Position numbers and translations under genes: made by a program. From NCBI GenBank assembly GCA_963816185.1, contig CAWFJJ010000030.1:96001-160000 (forward strand): DNA of 64,000 nt. The letters run 5' to 3'. Shown here piece after piece: positions 6,967 to 14,059 of this stretch (its first letter is position 1; each line of letters begins with the position of its first letter). The DNA comes from Thermoanaerobaculia bacterium (lineage in GTDB: Bacteria; Acidobacteriota; Thermoanaerobaculia; UBA5066). The notes under the pieces are model-generated. The model was not told where the DNA came from. It saw only the letters and a program-made list of their open reading frames with translations, and did not search any database.

Positions 6967-8110
6967 ATGGCGGCTGCCACGGGCCGCCCCAACCCTGGCT
7001 CGGTCGCGGCGCTGGCCTTCATCCGACTGTTATGCTGTTTAATGGTAATGTTAATTCCCCGCCGGAGCCGGGGCTGAGGAGGCCTTTCAAAAGCCGCAGC
7101 CGGGCCGCGTCTGGCAGTTCCCCGCCGACCACGGCTCCCACCCGGAGTACAAAACCGAGTGGTGGTATTGGGTGGGGCATCTCAAGTCCGCGGCAGGCGA
7201 GACCTTCGGCTACCAGCTCACCTTCTTCCGGGTGGCCTTGCGCCAACCGGACCCCCAGGCCCGTTCGGCCTGGCGCCTGAACACCGTCTATTTCGCCCAC
7301 CTGGCCGTCTCCGATCCGGCCCGAGGCCGCTTTCACTTCCGGGAAAAGGCGGGCCGGGGCGCCCTGGGGCTTTCCGGCGCGGAAGCCGGCCACCTCCGGG
7401 TCTGGATCGACGACTGGCAGGCGGAGCAGGTGGGGGAGGCCATGCACCTCCAAGCCCGGGACGAGGGCCTGGGGCTGGACTTGACCCTAACGCCCCTTAA
7501 ACCCCCGGCCTTGCACGGCGAAGGCGGCTTCAGCCGCAAGTCGGCCAAATCTGAGGCGGCCAGTTACTACTATTCCATCACCCGTCTGGATACCAAAGGT
7601 CATCTGACCCTGAATGGCCGCACCTTGGAGGTCAACGGCGCCAGCTGGATGGACCACGAGTTTTTCAGCCGCGCCATGGCCCCCGGCTTGGTGGGCTGGG
7701 ACTGGTTCGCCCTGCAACTGGACGACGGCCGGGAGGTGATGCTCTATCTCCTGCGGCATCAAGACGGCAGCCTGGACCCGGCCTCCTCCGGCACCCTGGT
7801 GGATGCTGCCGGGAAAACGCGGCATCTAAAGTTAAGCGATTTTCAGGTAAAGACCACCGGCGTCTGGAAGTCGCCCCATTCCAAGGCGGTGTATCCGGCG
7901 GGCTGGCAGATTAACCTTCCCGGGGCTGGTCTCAGTCTCACCCTGGCCCCCACCCTGGCCGACCAGGAGGTCCGGGCCGGCGCCCCGGCAAAGGTGAGCT
8001 ACTGGGAAGGGCAGGTAAAAATCCAGGGCCAGCAAGAGGGCAGCCCCATCAGCGGCTGGGGCTACGTGGAACTCACCGGATATGCGGGCGCCATGGGAGG
8101 AAGGTTTTAA
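6967..8110 (+). CDS. AttH/CrtC-like lipocalin-domain secreted protein (frameshifted at 5' end)
   Basis: FPADHGSHPEYKTEWWY, GYQLTFFR, SYYYSITR, WMDHEF, GWDWFALQL, YWEG, GYVELTGY. Confidence 0.88.
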
Positions 8111-8192
8111 GAACTGGACTTAAGAAAAAAAGGGGGCAGCCGCGGCCGGCCCCCCCTTATATTCTATATATAAAATCCCTTTTAATCGGGCG

Positions 8193-9561
8193 TTAGCGCG
8201 TCAGCCAGCGGTCGTTGCGCACCGTCAGAAAGGCCCAGGGCTGGATCCAGTTGAGGAAGAAGAAGGCGAAGTAGGAGTAGAGGATGCCGTAGATGAACTC
8301 CAGGTCCCGCTCCTGGTGAATGTAGTAGTACATCCACACCAGGGTGAAGACCCCCAGGCCGGCAAAGAATTTCACCATGACGATGGGGTAGATGACAAAG
8401 GAAACCAGCAGCATCCCCAGAAAGAGGTAGGTCAGGGGAAACTCGATCTGGGTCATGAAGAAGTCGAGGATGGGCAGCAGCCAATGTCTTTTGCCGGTAG
8501 TTGCCGAAGATGAACTTCACCTGAACCCAGTTTTCCCGGAAGTTGCTGCGATCCCAGCGCAGGTACATGCGCACCAGGCCCCGGTAGGTTTCCGGCACCT
8601 TGGTGTAGACCAGGGCGCTGCGCTGGTAGACGGTGTAGAATCCCTGCCGCAGCACCAGATTGGTGAGGGCCCGGTCTTCGCCGATGTTGGCGGGCAGGCC
8701 CATGAAGGTCTGTTGGCGCCATTCTTCCAGAATGGGTTTGACGGCGCTGCCCCGATAGGCGGACAGGGCGCCCGGGGTGCAGGTGACGAAGCCGTACATG
8801 CTTTGTGAGGCCCGCAAAAAATCGAAGGCCAGGACGAAACGCACCGCCAGCATCCGGGCCATGAGGCAGCGGCCCCGGTTGAAGACCTTGACGTTGCCGG
8901 CCACCGCGCCCACCCGGGAGTCCTGGAGCATGGGGGCGATGACCTGGCGTACCGTGTCCGGTTTGATGATGCTGTCGGAGTCGATGGTGACGAAGAACTC
9001 ACCCTTGCCCTGGGTAAAGCCGGTATAGAGGCCCTCTTTCTTGCCCCGGTTTTTGGGGAAGCGGATGGCCTTGATGAGTTTGGGATAACGCTTCTGAGCC
9101 CGTTCGATGTAAGTCCAGGTGTCGTCCTTGGAGCCGTCATCGATGCAGATAATCTCCAGCCGATCGGCCGGATAGTCGGAGGCGGCCGCGGCGTAAATGG
9201 ACTTTTCCACCATGGCCCCTTCGTTGTAGGCCGGGATAATGACCGTCACCCGGGGCAGGTGCCCTTGGGGCAACGCATAAGGTTTATAGCGCCACCAGAG
9301 GACGGTGCGGACCAACTGGAAACCCAGGTAGGCCAGGGTAAAGCCGGCCCCCAGGCCCATCAGGGGCGAGCCGAAGCTCTTGCTGCTCAGCAGTTGGAGA
9401 TAGCCGTTGAACGAGCCGACCTTAAAGGCCACGACGAAGCAGACCGACAAGATCAAAGGGACCAGGATCTTGAGGACCAGGTCCAGAACCTGGATCCGCT
9501 GCTCTTCTTTGGACCGCCATTTGCCCTGGGGCCAGGGAAAGGCGAAAGTGGTGGTGCGCAT
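8193..9561 (-). CDS. Processive GT2 glycosyltransferase (hyaluronan/chitin synthase-like), frameshift near 8480
   Basis: IPAYNE, IDDGSKD, GKKEG, TIDSDS, PGALSAYR, GEDRALT, MYLRWDRS (QxxRW variant); C-terminal TMs ending WLTR in the 8193-8456 frame. Confidence 0.9.
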
Positions 9562-10007: not shown

Positions 10008-11447
10008 ATGGTAAATAATCAGGCACCACCGACATCGGAAGAAGCCAGCGGGCTGAAGCTCTGCGAAATAGGGCAGGAGTGCGTTGTCCCTCCCGGAACC
10101 CGCATCGTCAGCCAGGGAGAAACCCCGGAATTTTTCTATGTGATTCAGTCCGGTCGAGTGCGGGTCTTTCGGGAGACGGCAGACGGCATCCGGACCCCGT
10201 TGACGGAATTGAGCGCCGGCACTTATTTCGGCGAAGTGGCCCTGGTGACCGGCCAGCCTCGCACCGCCTCAGTGGAGTCCATAGAAGAATCCGTCCTGAT
10301 CAAGGTCTCCAAGGAAGAATTCGACCGGCTGTTGGACGATAACCCCAGACTGGCCCGCCATATTATCAATCAATTGGCCAATTGGTTGGTGACCGGGGAT
10401 AGGCGCCTGGAAAAAGAGGTGGTGCACCAGGTGAAGCTGCGCCAGATCTCCTGGTTCGACTATGCCCTCATGATCGGTTTGAGTATTATTTTTGGCGTGG
10501 TCTTTAACATTTACAACGACAATAAAATCCCGCTCATTTACGGCTGGGGCGAAAAGAACGTTATTCCCGAGATTTCTCTGACCCAGGCCCAGGAAGAGTA
10601 CCAGAAGAACCAGGTCATTTTCGTCGATGCCAGGAAAAGCGCCTTCTTTGAACAGGAGCATATCAAGGGCGCCATGAACTTGCCGCTGGTTCTGTATGAT
10701 TTGATGTTTCCCATGTTTCAGTTCACCCTGGAGCAGACCCCGGGGACCAAGGACAAGACCATTATTGTCTACGGCGGTTCGTTTAGCCGGCGGTTCGACC
10801 TCGAACTGGCCCGCCTGTTGAAAAACAAGGTTGCGAACAAGGTGGTGGCATTAAAAGACTACTCCGGCTGGGAGCACACCTTTCCTTTGGAAGAGAAGCC
10901 GCCCAAAGAAGGCGCCGCCATCTCGCTGGGTCTGGCGGGTCTGCTCGAATCGCTGCCGTTGTCCATTTTCCTGCTCATCCTAATTCCTCCCATCCGCCGC
11001 AGCCCTTACATGTCAATGGTTTGCCGACTGCTTCTGGGGGCTATCTTTATTTCCTTTGCCTTGAGCAAAATTTTGCGGCCGGCGGTCTTTGCCTTGAACA
11101 CGGTGGATTATGGCATGATGCCCGCCTGGGGGGTGAATCTCTGGGCCCTCGCCTTGCCGTGGGCCGAACTGGTGGTCGGGTTGTTCCTGGTTCTGGGCAT
11201 CCGGACCCGGGCGGCGGCTACCCTGATCGGGACCATGGAAGTTATCTTTATCGTCGGTCTGGTCAACGCCATTTTTCACCATCTGCCGATTAACTGCGGC
11301 TGTGTCGGTGAAGTGGGTGAGCCGGTTAACTGGTTGAAAGTCCTCAAAAATACCGGAGGGTTAATCATGTGCATCCAAATTTTCTTCTACGATCGTTTTT
11401 TCGTCTTGGATCGTGGAGGCTTCACCTTGCGGGATAGATCGATATGA
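10008..11447 (+). CDS. Fusion protein: cNMP-binding domain + TM + rhodanese-like domain (no catalytic Cys) + MauE/DoxX membrane domain
   Basis: FYVIQSGRVRV…YFGEVALVTGQPRTASV (cNMP); FVDARK…HIKGAMNLP…IIVYGGS (rhodanese); RLLLGAIFISFALSKI…LPWAELVVG…INCGCVG (MauE). Confidence 0.85.
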   Translation: MVNNQAPPTSEEASGLKLCEIGQECVVPPGTRIVSQGETPEFFYVIQSGRVRVFRETADGIRTPLTELSAGTYFGEVALVTGQPRTASVESIEESVLIKVSKEEFDRLLDDNPRLARHIINQLANWLVTGDRRLEKEVVHQVKLRQISWFDYALMIGLSIIFGVVFNIYNDNKIPLIYGWGEKNVIPEISLTQAQEEYQKNQVIFVDARKSAFFEQEHIKGAMNLPLVLYDLMFPMFQFTLEQTPGTKDKTIIVYGGSFSRRFDLELARLLKNKVANKVVALKDYSGWEHTFPLEEKPPKEGAAISLGLAGLLESLPLSIFLLILIPPIRRSPYMSMVCRLLLGAIFISFALSKILRPAVFALNTVDYGMMPAWGVNLWALALPWAELVVGLFLVLGIRTRAAATLIGTMEVIFIVGLVNAIFHHLPINCGCVGEVGEPVNWLKVLKNTGGLIMCIQIFFYDRFFVLDRGGFTLRDRSI

Positions 11448-11821
11448 AGAGAGAACTGCTGACGATAGCCGCGGTCCTTGGGTTGCTCCTGGTTTGCCTG
11501 GGCCTGGGAGGTTGCGGGGAGTCTCGCTCTCCCTTCGCCGGGACCTATCGGTCTGAGGAGACCTTTGCCGGGAATAAATACATCGACCTTGACCTGAAAG
11601 AGGATGGCAAGGGGACTTGGAGTCTGGCGGGGAAAACCGTGGAATTCACCTGGGTGGTGAACGAGGGCAAGGTCTGGATGTATCTCAGGACCGGGGGCAT
11701 CGTCATCGCCACCCCCAGCGACGAGGGCAAGAAGTTGTCGCTGGACATGACCGGCGACTGGCATCCCGGTTGTCCGCCCAATGCCTGTGTGACCTTTAAG
11801 CGGATCAAGGAAGGAGGATAA
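11444..11821 (+). CDS. Putative lipoprotein with C-terminal CPPNAC
   Basis: Lipobox-like LGGC after hydrophobic signal; ATGA overlap with upstream gene. Confidence 0.7.
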   Translation: MKRELLTIAAVLGLLLVCLGLGGCGESRSPFAGTYRSEETFAGNKYIDLDLKEDGKGTWSLAGKTVEFTWVVNEGKVWMYLRTGGIVIATPSDEGKKLSLDMTGDWHPGCPPNACVTFKRIKEGG

Positions 11822-11864
11822 GGCAATATTTAATCTGGCAACCCCGGGGGCGAAAATCAAGACG

Positions 11865-13031
11865 TTGAGCCTCCTGGGGATTTTTGTACTGGCCGTGGGA
11901 AGTCTTCTCAGTCCCAGGATGGGGTGGGGAGCCGCTACTGTGGAAGTTCGCCGCCTGGGTTTGAGCCGGGTGGGAGAAAACACCTTGTTGACCATCGTCC
12001 TGGATCGGACGGCGGAGCCGCAAATCACTGCCGCCAAGACCTCGGGAAAACCCCAATTGGTGGTGGAATTCCCCCAGGCCCGGGCTGGGAACCTGCCGAG
12101 CCGCCTGGAAGGGGATGATATCTTGGTGGAGCAAGTGGAAACCCAGTCCGCTGCCAGGGGGGTGAGGATCACCCTTGACCTGTTCCCGGACCAACCCTAT
12201 TCTTACTGGCGACAGAGTCGACCCGGCCTCGGAGGCCAGACCCTGTTCATCCTGGGTCTGAAGCCCGACACCTCGGGCCGCGGCCTGACGCAGATGCGGC
12301 CACCGGCGGGACCGGCGCCGACGCCTTCCGCCAGCCCTTCACTACCGGCGAGGGAGCCGGAGTACGCCACCCCGCCTCCGACGGAGCCTCCTGTGGAGGA
12401 GTACAAACCAGCGGCGCCCTCCGGGAACGTGGTTCCCGGCAGCTTTGCCGATTTGCGCCAACTGATACCCCGGGCCGGGGCGCTGCTGCAAAGCCTGGAA
12501 AACGAGGGCTGGAGCGTCGGCGAATCCCATAATTATAACCGGCCGGGCCAACGCAATTTTCGGGATTTTACTCTGTCAAACCGGAAGTACCCGGAATTGG
12601 CGGTGAAGATTGTGTATATGCCGTCTAATTCGCCCGGAACTCCCAATATCGGCATTGTCAGCCTGACTACCGACAATTGGTCGAGTGAGGCCGCCACCAA
12701 ATATCAGAGCCTGCGCCAGTGGAGTTTCGGCCGTATTAAGAAGGACTATGAAGATATCGGCGATTTCTTCGAGGATGCTTTGAAACCCCTGCGGGTGACT
12801 CTGCGGGAAGAGACCAAGTCTCTGGTGCTCAAAGATGCCGTGGTCTTCACGAATTTTGTGCAGGCCGCCTCCGGCAACCCCCAGGTGGCCGAGAAAGTCA
12901 TGAGCCACGTGCGGGAGAAAGTGAATCCTCGATTCGAAGGGGTGCAATACACCGTCTCGGAAAACCCCCTGATCATTCTCAATCAGGTGGATTTTCTTTA
13001 TGTGAAGGTCTATTTTCTGGATTCCAAGTAA
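11865..13031 (+). CDS. Exported protein with AMIN-like N-terminal domain, Pro-rich linker and unknown C-terminal domain
   Basis: Signal-like N-term; LTIVLDR…PQLVVEFP…VRITLDL pattern; PAGPAPTPSASP linker; start uncertain. Confidence 0.6.
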   Translation: MSLLGIFVLAVGSLLSPRMGWGAATVEVRRLGLSRVGENTLLTIVLDRTAEPQITAAKTSGKPQLVVEFPQARAGNLPSRLEGDDILVEQVETQSAARGVRITLDLFPDQPYSYWRQSRPGLGGQTLFILGLKPDTSGRGLTQMRPPAGPAPTPSASPSLPAREPEYATPPPTEPPVEEYKPAAPSGNVVPGSFADLRQLIPRAGALLQSLENEGWSVGESHNYNRPGQRNFRDFTLSNRKYPELAVKIVYMPSNSPGTPNIGIVSLTTDNWSSEAATKYQSLRQWSFGRIKKDYEDIGDFFEDALKPLRVTLREETKSLVLKDAVVFTNFVQAASGNPQVAEKVMSHVREKVNPRFEGVQYTVSENPLIILNQVDFLYVKVYFLDSK

Positions 13032-13042
13032 GGAGGTGGACC

Positions 13043-13267
13043 GTGGCTAAGGAAATTACCATCTTCGGCAAGCAGTCCTGACCCTTCACCCTCAAGGCCC
13101 GGGAGGCCAAGAGTAAAGAGGGTTTTACCGTAATTTATAAGGATGTGATCCAAAGTTCCCAGGCCATGGAGGAGATGCAGGGCCTCATCCCGGGCAATCG
13201 CCGGGTGCCGGTGCTGCTGGAAGACGGCCAGGTGAGCATCGGCTTCGGCGGCGCCTGAAAGGCTTGA
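13043..13267 (+). CDS. Glutaredoxin-like selenoprotein with two in-frame UGA (Uxx-star type), 74 aa; not in ORF track
   Basis: AGGAGG RBS + GTG; MAKEITIFGKQS-U-PFTLKAREAKSKEGFTVIYKDVIQSSQAMEEMQGLIPGNRRVPVLLEDGQVSIGFGGA-U-KA*; UGA at 13079 and 13256; Grx VP and GF motifs lie after the first UGA. Confidence 0.88.
13091..13113 (+). promoter_or_regulatory. SECIS-like hairpin for UGA 13079
   Basis: ctc-aa-ggcc-cggga-ggcc-aa-gag starting about 10 nt after the UGA. Confidence 0.55.
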
Positions 13268-13270
13268 GTC

Positions 13271-13292
13271 ACCCACGGTCGTGGGTTTTTTT
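13271..13292 (+). promoter_or_regulatory. SECIS-like hairpin for UGA 13256, also resembling an intrinsic terminator
   Basis: acccac-ggtc-gtgggt 12 nt after the UGA, GGUC loop, followed by a T-run. Confidence 0.65.
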
Positions 13293-13775
13293 GCACAAAT
13301 CTGAGTAATCGGCTGGATCAAGGGCCGGGAGGTGGTAGCAAACCACCCCCGGCTTTTTTTCCACTATCTCCCGCCGGATTGCTTCGCAAGATTTCTTAAT
13401 GCCCTTGTACCGGCTTACTGGGAACGGGAAGAGGGCGTAGATGCTGGCCGAAACCACAATTTTTGCCAGAAGTCGGGTAGAAAGGAGCCCGATGGCTAAC
13501 TAAAATAAATAAAATAATTAAAGATTGAGTAACATATCTTAATTATTATTAAAATAGGTATAAAAAACGCATTAATAAAAATTCAGTTTTATGATTATAA
13601 AAAATGTCCCACTCTGAAGCATAAAATGAGCTTAAATGCTGGAAAATAACCCCATTATTGGGAAAATGGACGCGCTTTTTGCCACAGAAATTGTCAGGGA
13701 GGCGTGGGCAAATTTATTTATGGCGATTATTATTTAAGATTATCTGATGGTTATCAATATTGGTGAAATTTTTTC

Positions 13776-13804
13776 TTGACAGGCCGATCAATTGGCCATA
13801 AGAT
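13776..13804 (+). promoter_or_regulatory. Sigma-70 promoter
   Basis: TTGACA-N17-TAAGAT. Confidence 0.75.
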
Positions 13805-13810
13805 GGTTCA

Positions 13811-13986
13811 AACAATCACAAAGGTCCTTTGGGTCGTGCGCTAGTGCACTTAACCAATGGCTTTTGGGGATAGGAACCTGAGACCGGGCGGCCGTCAATA
13901 CCGGGGATGTTCCCCGGCGAAGCGACCCTAGGCTGAAGGCGTCAAATTACTACCAAGAAATCCGGGGCTGCGGCCCCAATTTTTTC
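13811..13986 (+). ncRNA. Candidate structured leader RNA or sRNA (class unassigned) ending in a terminator-like hairpin
   Basis: gggtcgt (13831) pairs with gcgaccc (13922); internal hairpins gtgcgctagtgcac and ccggggatgttccccgg; ggggc-tgcg-gcccc + T-run at 13964-13986. Confidence 0.5.
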
Positions 13987-14059
13987 CTGGCGGTTCCTTT
14001 TTTCAAGTTATTCCCCAGCCATCGAAGCAAGCCTGAACTGTCTGCAAAGGGAGGGAGCC

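Follow-up and report, generated by a model that had tools for sequence, protein, structure and literature searches.

A conserved four-gene locus linking a cyclic-nucleotide-binding, rhodanese-like and MauE fusion protein to a UXX-star selenoprotein

The four genes and their conservation

A 64,000-nucleotide (nt) stretch of contig CAWFJJ010000030.1 (GenBank assembly GCA_963816185.1, Thermoanaerobaculia bacterium), called the window here and the source of the coordinate numbering throughout, carries four co-oriented plus-strand genes, g1 to g4, at 10008-13267 (Table 1). In order, they encode a membrane protein in which a cyclic-nucleotide-binding (cNMP) domain, a rhodanese-like domain and a MauE domain are fused, a small lipoprotein, an exported protein with an AMIN domain, and a glutaredoxin-like selenoprotein with two codons for selenocysteine (Sec, U). 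The start of g1, an ATG at 10008, agrees with the N-termini of its orthologues, the ATG of g2 overlaps the TGA of g1 (ATGA, 11444-11447), 43 nt separate the stop of g2 from the start of g3, and g4 begins with a GTG at 13043, 11 nt past the TAA of g3, with a GGAGG ribosome-binding site that directly abuts that stop codon. A six-pair hairpin at 13271-13286, followed by a T run of seven if the last stem base is included, closes the block. The first-pass annotation of the window, a reading of the sequence without database searches, had reported this tight packing and named the four kinds of product, a fusion with CGC, a lipoprotein with CPPNAC, an AMIN-like exported protein and a double-Sec glutaredoxin; these observations are confirmed, and the interpretation offered with them, a redox relay across the envelope, is partly supported.

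One scan of species-representative genomes with an alignment of g1 recovered 57 loci, all of them in metagenome-assembled genomes of a single Desulfobaccales-like lineage and encoding proteins 57-91% identical to g1. The order g1-g2-g3-g4 is preserved on one strand within 4.2 kb in 53 of the 57 loci, and the other four (L023, L027, L043 and L046) sit on contigs that stop short of g3 or g4, so that a linkage first flagged as possibly accidental is more than chance. g4 follows g3 in all 53 loci that extend that far. Spacing is conserved as well: g1 and g2 overlap by 4 nt in 43 of 50 cases, the seven exceptions being mostly artefacts of partial alignment, and g3 and g4 lie 8-16 nt apart, or overlap, in 45 of 50, where the ribosome-binding site of g4 abuts or overlaps the stop codon of g3; a gap of 102-217 nt separates the two in 4 of 50. 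Among the matches listed, the relatives of g1, g2 and g3 were named only Desulfobaccales, Thermodesulfobacteriota, Deltaproteobacteria or similar, and homologues of g3 and g2 carry neighbouring locus tags (COS90_01595/01600 and VIN67_12160/12165).

The flanks of the block are less uniform. A GT2 glycosyltransferase gene lies no more than 1.5 kb upstream of g1 in 56 of the 57 loci and is absent from L040; downstream, efp is found within 3.5 kb in 37 loci and is absent from 9 loci with enough sequence. The flanks of L040 are wholly different, with UDG, NfeD and SPFH genes upstream and a Lon-like gene downstream, and g1-g4 are intact there, g4 again following g3; the persistence of the whole block amid different flanks favours a four-gene unit. 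Judged by this comparison of gene order and spacing, g1-g4 is a predicted lineage-specific operon of Desulfobaccales-like bacteria, one conserved unit confined to a single anaerobic order.

Table 1. Features of the g1-g4 locus and the neighbouring glycosyltransferase gene, in window coordinates
Feature	Position	Strand	Basis
g1, 479-aa membrane fusion: cNMP-binding / Cys-less rhodanese / MauE	10008-11447	+	Pfam
cNMP-binding domain of g1, predicted cytoplasmic	10086-10343	+	Pfam, residues 27-112
Rhodanese-like domain of g1, without catalytic Cys, predicted periplasmic	10581-10868	+	Pfam, residues 192-287
MauE domain of g1, DsbB-like four-helix module	11007-11375	+	Pfam, residues 334-456
CGC motif C430-G431-C432, in the loop between MauE helices 3 and 4	11295-11303	+	invariant in 12 sequences
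g2, 125-aa lipocalin-like lipoprotein; lipobox Cys24, C110-x4-C115	11444-11821	+	alignment, AlphaFold2 fold
g3, 388-aa exported protein: signal peptide, AMIN, Pro-rich linker, C-terminal domain	11865-13031	+	Pfam, alignment
C-terminal domain of g3, 198 residues	12435-13028	+	AlphaFold2 model
g4, 74-aa UXX-star family 1 glutaredoxin-like selenoprotein; U13, U72, K-A-stop	13043-13267	+	NF041114
SECIS 1, after UGA 13079-13081; core GGCC-CGGGA-GGCC at 13096-13108	13083-13122	+	consensus fold
SECIS 2, after UGA 13256-13258, past the stop codon; terminator-like in the window	13271-13286	+	covariation
NodC/PgaC-like GT2 glycosyltransferase neighbour, divergent, frameshifted in the window	8182-9561	-	sub-cut-off hidden Markov model matches

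The encoded proteins

Three Pfam matches define g1. The first, to cNMP_binding (PF00027), reaches 82.6 bits (E 2e-23); in an alignment of 12 sequences, to which residue conservation in g1 refers throughout, the phosphate-binding cassette F74 G75 E76 ... R85 A87 S88 is invariant, and the profile matches the PKA/PKG regulatory subunits and the CAP and SthK domains in the PDB, so that the cyclic-nucleotide-binding domain proposed at first reading is a predicted one with its cassette intact. The second, to Rhodanese (E 2.5e-09), covers a domain whose active-site loop reads VYGG[ST]FSRR, with G256 and G257 invariant and a Gly at the position of the catalytic Cys; this domain cannot be a sulfurtransferase. 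The third, to MauE (PF07291), stands at 77.4 bits against a cut-off of 27 (E 1.5e-21), and DoxX also matches (E 9.5e-07). Within the MauE domain K354, E387 and C430-G431-C432 are invariant, and the same Lys, Glu and CXC occur in stand-alone MauE and rhodanese-MauE relatives (P0379, P0396 and P0446).

Hydropathy marks segments of g1 at residues 150-168, 308-326, 338-356, 380-398 and 405-423, and a sixth, weaker one was read by eye at about 447-465; the last four are the MauE helices, and the rhodanese domain sits between the first two. The loop that holds CGC has no net positive charge and its flanking loops obey the positive-inside rule, with the loops PPIRRSPYMSM and GIRTRAA and an Arg-rich C-terminal tail, itself highly conserved, on the same side as the cNMP domain. 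From this distribution we infer a six-helix inner-membrane protein in which the cNMP domain, the short loops and the C-terminal tail would be cytoplasmic, the rhodanese domain and the loop HHLPINCGCVGE would lie outside, and CGC would face the periplasm. No Cys on the cytoplasmic side or within the membrane is invariant among the 12 sequences: C19, C339 and C455 all vary.

The best 120 homologues of g1 are 72-94% identical to it. Wider relatives were sought among every representative of 1.84 billion protein clusters, and a single one, P0079 (75% identity), spans nearly all of g1 (residues 13-479). Many others are about 305 residues long and combine a cNMP domain and a single helix with a rhodanese domain that is Cys-less (P0374-P0376, P0388, P0391 and P0410), and versions with a receiver domain (P0481) or with cNMP and GAF domains (P0383) occur too. 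These sensor-rhodanese proteins align to g1 over residues 17-290 or so at 28-38% identity and share its Cys-less loop, as VYG[GR][ST]xS, but they lack the MauE module that g1 has. The stand-alone MauE protein P0379 is 57% identical over residues 332-479 of g1 and has the same C-terminal tail, and P0446 is a rhodanese-MauE fusion whose rhodanese domain keeps its Cys. Because the relatives split in this way, into sensor-rhodanese proteins of about 305 residues and stand-alone MauE, g1 looks like a lineage-specific fusion of the former with a P0379-like form of the latter. The repeated placement of a Cys-less rhodanese domain behind several types of cytoplasmic sensor suggests a recurring signalling module.

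In g2 an L-x-G-C lipobox stands at the end of the predicted signal peptide, as expected of a lipoprotein, and C24, C110 and C115 are invariant in 37 sequences, the last two bounding CPPNAC at residues 110-115. Both Cys motifs singled out by the first-pass annotation, this one and the CGC of g1, are thus conserved. The best 120 homologues are 65-93% identical; Pfam gives g2 only sub-threshold matches and NCBIfam none. The AlphaFold2 model is an all-beta barrel (predicted local distance difference test, pLDDT, 83.7) whose best fold matches in the PDB, lipocalins and small lipoproteins of barrel shape, have E-values of 0.008-0.09 and thus none at or below 0.001, and the leading match in the ESM Atlas is DUF5640/Lipocalin_4 at 0.91. 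A complex of g1 residues 140-479 with g2 residues 24-125 was predicted from the window sequences alone, without alignments; it scored 0.58 (0.57-0.58 over three runs) against 0.01 for the best of three controls, which is graded weak support, and the runs share at least 86% of contacts with a partner pLDDT of at least 76. In the calibration of this procedure 51 of 78 solved complexes passed the mark, compared with 2 of 108 mismatched pairs, and scores of 0.60 or less comprised 5 of the 78 solved complexes and all 4 passing mismatches (of 180). The predicted complex is a mild plus for an association of g1 with g2.

g3 has a hydrophobic N-terminus that ends in WG(A) and is followed by a conserved VEVRRLGLS in most of 25 sequences, among whose signal peptides no twin-arginine motif occurs. 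Its match to Pfam AMIN is marginal, the score of 22.6 bits (E 1.2e-4) lying a little above the cut-off of 20.5; AMIN domains have a role in anchoring to the cell wall. The C-terminal domain is modelled by AlphaFold2 with high confidence as mixed alpha/beta (pLDDT 93; predicted template modelling score 0.88), and it found no fold match in the PDB at E 0.001 or below (best template modelling score 0.23) and, in the ESM Atlas, only scores of 0.83, which are at chance level; the model may represent an undescribed fold. Its 52 orthologues have between none and two Cys in this domain, none of them conserved. The best 120 homologues of g3 are 58-91% identical to it.

The product of g4 matches Pfam Glutaredoxin and, with 86 bits (E 1.5e-24) where the cut-off is 72, NCBIfam NF041114, "UXX-star selenoprotein family 1"; by this profile it belongs to an already catalogued family and not to a new one. 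In-frame TGA codons stand at positions 13 and 72, the second followed by K-A and a TGA stop (13265-13267), and UPFT at residues 13-16 corresponds to the UxxT motif of the family, with its alternation of Sec and Cys. The selenocysteine insertion sequences (SECIS) were compared in 50 sequences, the window and 49 loci. Left out of the SECIS and g4 codon counts were L004 and L045, with a frameshift within g4, and L009 and L035, where the contig ends; L016, with an N-terminal frameshift, was left out of the count of 49 g4 orthologues only. The frameshifted readings lie at 11057-11280 in L004, 11009-11230 in L045 and 11038-11075 in L016.

All 49 orthologues use Sec. Position 13 is U in 46 of them and C in 3, position 72 is U in every one, and all end in U-x-x-stop; since the stop two codons on may be TGA (33), TAA (11) or TAG (5), the reading frame truly continues past the second TGA. 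The three orthologues with Cys at position 13 (L013, L020 and L039) keep Sec at 72, and SECIS 1 is unaltered in L013 and L039 and has one loop change in L020. The consensus fold of SECIS 1 has 7 pairs, and its core is invariant in 47-50 of the 50 sequences, synonymous codon positions included; no compensatory change occurs among the 50, and invariance at synonymous sites argues for constraint on the RNA. The hairpin of SECIS 2 is kept in the 50 sequences with compensatory double changes in 3 of its 4 core pairs, as in the variants CCCAC/GTGGG, CCCGC/GCGGG, CCTGC/GCAGG and GCTGC/GCAGA. In the window sequence both SECIS loops start about 22 nt, by hand count, from the U of their UGA. Each UGA of g4 thus appears to have its own SECIS, and insertion of Sec is predicted at both.

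This comparison changes the reading of the hairpin at 13271-13286, which the first-pass annotation took for the single terminator of the operon. The hairpin and its T run are present as described, but a T run of at least 5 follows SECIS 2 in the window only, 1 of the 50 sequences, and for this reason the element is, on comparative grounds, primarily the predicted SECIS for U72 and not a conserved terminator; it may double as a terminator in the window genome only. A minus-strand open reading frame (ORF) of 62 aa at 13269-13457 overlaps SECIS 2.

The g4 sequence has no signal peptide and starts directly with the first beta-strand, and a role as a DsbA-like periplasmic partner of MauE was rejected on these grounds. 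When its profile is aligned with PDB glutaredoxins, U13 falls opposite the first Cys of the CPxC motif, and the tail comes after a G-G turn beyond the last strand. In glutaredoxins a tail that follows this turn lies beside the active site. U13 and U72 should be able to meet, given where U13 aligns and what the tail follows, and they probably form an intramolecular Se-Se (or S-Se) couple. A 2026 review, PMC13188914, lists the family under the name "Distant Grx-like protein 1", gives UxxT as its motif and 2 as its number of Sec, and says that Sec in the UXX-star family may bind metals or unidentified substrates. g4 is indistinguishable from UXX-star family 1, to which the present analysis adds a gene neighbourhood and covariation for the 3' SECIS. 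Rfam at gathering thresholds placed one tRNA only in the window and nothing within the operon, ARAGORN found tRNA-Pro only in the window and no tRNA-Sec, and a general Pfam scan of the ORFs of the window (including a set of 42) gave no match named as a selenium-utilisation gene.

Proposed function and competing explanations

The enzymology of MauE provides the closest guide to function. According to a preprint of March 2026 (10.64898/2026.03.05.709764), E. coli cells deleted for dsbB regain both motility and PhoA (alkaline phosphatase) activity when given MauE of Desulfatibacillum aliphaticivorans (Thermodesulfobacteriota) or of Caldithrix abyssi (Calditrichota), and single or double mutants of the CXC (CGC) motif lose rescue. 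The same preprint locates the CXC in the periplasmic loop between TM3 and TM4, describes a TM1 Lys and a TM2 Glu as conserved near the predicted quinone site, and holds that MauE probably acts through a periplasmic thioredoxin-fold partner (10.64898/2026.03.05.709764). g1 resembles these proteins in its Pfam MauE match, four helices, CGC between helices 3 and 4, helix-1 Lys and helix-2 Glu, and differs from them in being fused behind a cNMP domain, two additional helices and a rhodanese domain without its catalytic Cys.

We therefore consider, with about an even chance of being right, that the operon encodes a ligand-gated periplasmic thiol-oxidising module accompanied by a cytoplasmic selenoprotein. 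A cyclic nucleotide would bind the cNMP domain of g1 inside the cell and thereby tune the activity of MauE, whose CGC, if it works like that of the two MauE proteins able to stand in for DsbB, would draw electrons from periplasmic thiols and deliver them to the quinone pool. Because MauE with its CXC site has been shown to be DsbB-like, electrons most likely run from periplasmic thiols to quinone and not outward from g4. g2, translationally coupled to g1, would be the likeliest dedicated client or partner; g3, without a conserved Cys, is better suited to be an exported structural or effector partner than a redox carrier. g4 would stay in the cytoplasm as a low-potential selenol/diselenide protein, co-expressed with the others and co-translated with g3, and since no thiol path is visible from it to a periplasmic CGC, its tie to the rest would be one of co-expression or regulation and not of direct electron donation.

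Several points weigh against this reading of the operon as an oxidising module. Part of the conservation could be inherited synteny, because all 57 loci belong to one lineage and GT2 is kept in 56 of them, and L040 is the sole case with rearranged upstream flanks. The residues that follow the CXC of g1 are V433-G434, invariant in the alignment, where the preprint reports that Phe-Gly is usual directly after the motif and that the Phe is highly conserved (10.64898/2026.03.05.709764); g1 thus has Val in place of the Phe of the MauE proteins described there, and its relatives P0379, P0396 and P0446 carry the Phe. The preprint also cites an earlier report of MauE as possibly a reductase (10.64898/2026.03.05.709764). 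The topology assigned to g1 is deduced solely from hydropathy and charge, and the score of the g1-g2 complex falls in a weak band in which predictions that pass are more often wrong than right unless the pairing was likely beforehand. A MauE partner of thioredoxin fold is expected in the periplasm, yet the operon encodes none there, and its sole protein of that fold, g4, is cytoplasmic by its lack of a signal peptide. This leaves a gap in the account of either g4 or the oxidase, and the model does not account for the role of g4 in the operon.

In the relay that the first-pass annotation proposed, a reductive one resembling DsbD and gated by cyclic nucleotide, electrons would pass from cytoplasmic g4 to the MauE Cys pair and on to the lipoprotein g2. 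The conserved and translationally coupled operon speaks for it, as do the standing of g4 as the one thioredoxin-fold protein, the invariance of both CGC and C-x4-C, the highly conserved cytoplasmic tail of g1, which could serve as a docking site, and the earlier report of a possible reductase that the preprint cites (10.64898/2026.03.05.709764). We nevertheless judge it very unlikely: in two assays MauE replaced an oxidase, DsbB, and so acted on periplasmic thiols (same preprint), the single invariant Cys pair of g1 is placed in the periplasm with none of the varying C19, C339 and C455 to carry electrons from the cytoplasm or through the membrane, g1 has no DsbD or CcdA homology, and its rhodanese domain is Cys-less. 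With the only thioredoxin-fold protein of a MauE operon in the cytoplasm, there is room for an odder coupling, in which g4 would dock on the cytoplasmic tail or cNMP domain of g1, couple the redox or selenium state of the cytoplasm to the periplasmic CGC, and so set the disulfide state of a complex of the g2 lipocalin and the AMIN protein at the cell wall; we regard such a trans-membrane redox switch gated by cyclic nucleotide as improbable. Another account confines the functional unit to g1-g3 and makes g4 a cytoplasmic redox gene that has no relation to them and, in this lineage, merely shares their transcript. Nothing offers g4 a thiol path to the periplasmic sites, the linkage may be inherited in a single lineage, and the g3-g4 gap widens to 102-217 nt in 4 of 50 cases, but g4 stands after g3 wherever sequence reaches that far, L040 included, with its ribosome-binding site at or over the stop of g3 in 45 of 50, and this account seems to us unlikely.

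Two further explanations look away from thiol oxidation. The lipoprotein and the AMIN-domain protein are typical envelope components, and g1-g3 might be accessory to a NodC/PgaC-like synthase, regulating or exporting a GlcNAc-type envelope polysaccharide in response to cyclic nucleotide, with g4 as a passenger. The nearly constant GT2 neighbour (56 of 57 loci), which resembles NodC (TIGR04242, E 7e-50) and PgaC_IcaA (E 7e-41) and has Chitin_synth_2, points this way, as does a weak match of the g1 rhodanese domain to NF045521, "rhoda_near_glyco" (E 0.003, far below cut-off). L040, by contrast, keeps g1-g4 without GT2, the GT2 matches fall far below the equivalog cut-offs, the gene is frameshifted in the window, and the block holds no gene for an outer-membrane porin or a deacetylase. 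We know of no polysaccharide system with MauE, and consider a role of this kind quite unlikely. The other explanation is the handling of metals, metalloids or chalcogens. Here the two Sec of g4, like the Cys pairs in g1 and g2, would ligate or carry species of elements such as Hg, As, Se or Te, and anions would bind to the Cys-less rhodanese domain. This would fit the two Arg (SRR) that the rhodanese loop retains though its Cys is lost, and would fit the lipocalin-like barrel of g2, a fold that binds small ligands. It is made highly doubtful by the lack, within the block and next to it, of any gene for a transporter, a reductase or a regulator that senses metals, and by MauE features that indicate oxidation of protein thiols, and the statement on metals in PMC13188914 is itself conjecture.

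Comparison with known systems places the parts more readily than the whole. DsbD and CcdA share with the relay idea a cytoplasmic thioredoxin-fold donor, a membrane Cys protein and a periplasmic acceptor, whereas the one Cys pair of g1 is placed on the periplasmic side and none is embedded in the membrane; among Pfam and NCBIfam profiles it shows no likeness to DsbD or CcdA, and only TsoB matches, below its cut-off. In Mycobacterium tuberculosis a membrane-associated oxidoreductase complex, DoxX-SseA-SodA, brings DoxX together with the catalytic rhodanese SseA as separate proteins. It likewise pairs a membrane protein of the DoxX/MauE superfamily with a protein of the rhodanese family, which in g1 are fused, the rhodanese being Cys-less and predicted to be periplasmic. 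TsoB (NF045694), a rhodanese/DsbD fusion-like selenoprotein compared here by its name and its row in a table of PMC13188914, also combines a rhodanese with a membrane redox module in the setting of selenoprotein genes, but the score of g1, 15 bits, is far from the cut-off of 805, and g1 contains no Sec, has a MauE and not a DsbD-like module, and lacks the catalytic residue of the rhodanese. Searches for MauE, cyclic-nucleotide binding, rhodanese and selenocysteine found no three of them joined in the literature searched, whose scope did not include bioRxiv supplements; there, "UXX-star" occurred only in the review PMC13188914, selenoprotein with MauE gave only unrelated matches to author names, and MauE with rhodanese or DoxX only unrelated genome papers. 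The MauE preprint, in its available text, makes no mention of rhodanese, cyclic nucleotides or selenium (10.64898/2026.03.05.709764). MauE, the cNMP domain, the rhodanese fold, the lipocalin-like lipoprotein, AMIN and UXX-star family 1 are thus all known, and their combination was not found in print.

The interest of the locus lies in that combination. A MauE wired to a cytoplasmic sensor of cyclic nucleotides would let an intracellular signal switch the formation of disulfides in the envelope. To our knowledge, DsbB, VKOR and the MauE proteins tested so far in E. coli have been treated as constitutive housekeeping enzymes. If the improbable redox switch were true, g1 would be the first ligand-regulated member of the DsbB/VKOR/MauE class and g4 would supply the first functional context for a UXX-star selenoprotein. 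The conserved and translationally coupled neighbourhood also offers concrete candidate partners for the UXX-star family, as yet without a function in the literature, and the Cys-less, putatively periplasmic rhodanese domain behind several sensors points to an undescribed signalling module. For annotation, the lesson is that a hairpin immediately beyond a stop codon need not be a terminator and can instead be a SECIS that serves a Sec codon three residues earlier.

Neighbouring genes and the wider window

A frameshift near 8456-8480 breaks the GT2 gene of the window into two ORFs, one of 459 aa whose tail is out of frame and one of 87 aa; the orthologue in L001 is an intact ORF of 455 residues, and the window copy is either a pseudogene or an assembly error. 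Beside it, at 7172-8110, lies a gene for a two-domain CrtC/lipocalin_9 protein, which adjoins GT2 in 34 of the 57 loci and is separated from it by inserted genes in others. Downstream of the operon lies a spacer of 0.8 kb. Of the 10 promoter-like matches in the region scanned, 7 fall in this spacer, at 13478-14006, and it also contains a two-way terminator-like hairpin at 13962-13979.

Composition and gene content both change at about 26000. G+C rises from 0.53-0.63 over 1-26 kb to 0.65-0.71 over 26-64 kb, and genes for a Ser/Thr kinase, an FG-GAP/ASPIC protein and an ECF (extracytoplasmic function) sigma factor with DUF6596 are found in the second part. That part also holds a cluster of lpxA, lpxD, ompH and bamA; lpxB is in the first. 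The window could be a composite or chimeric stretch, or could contain an island.

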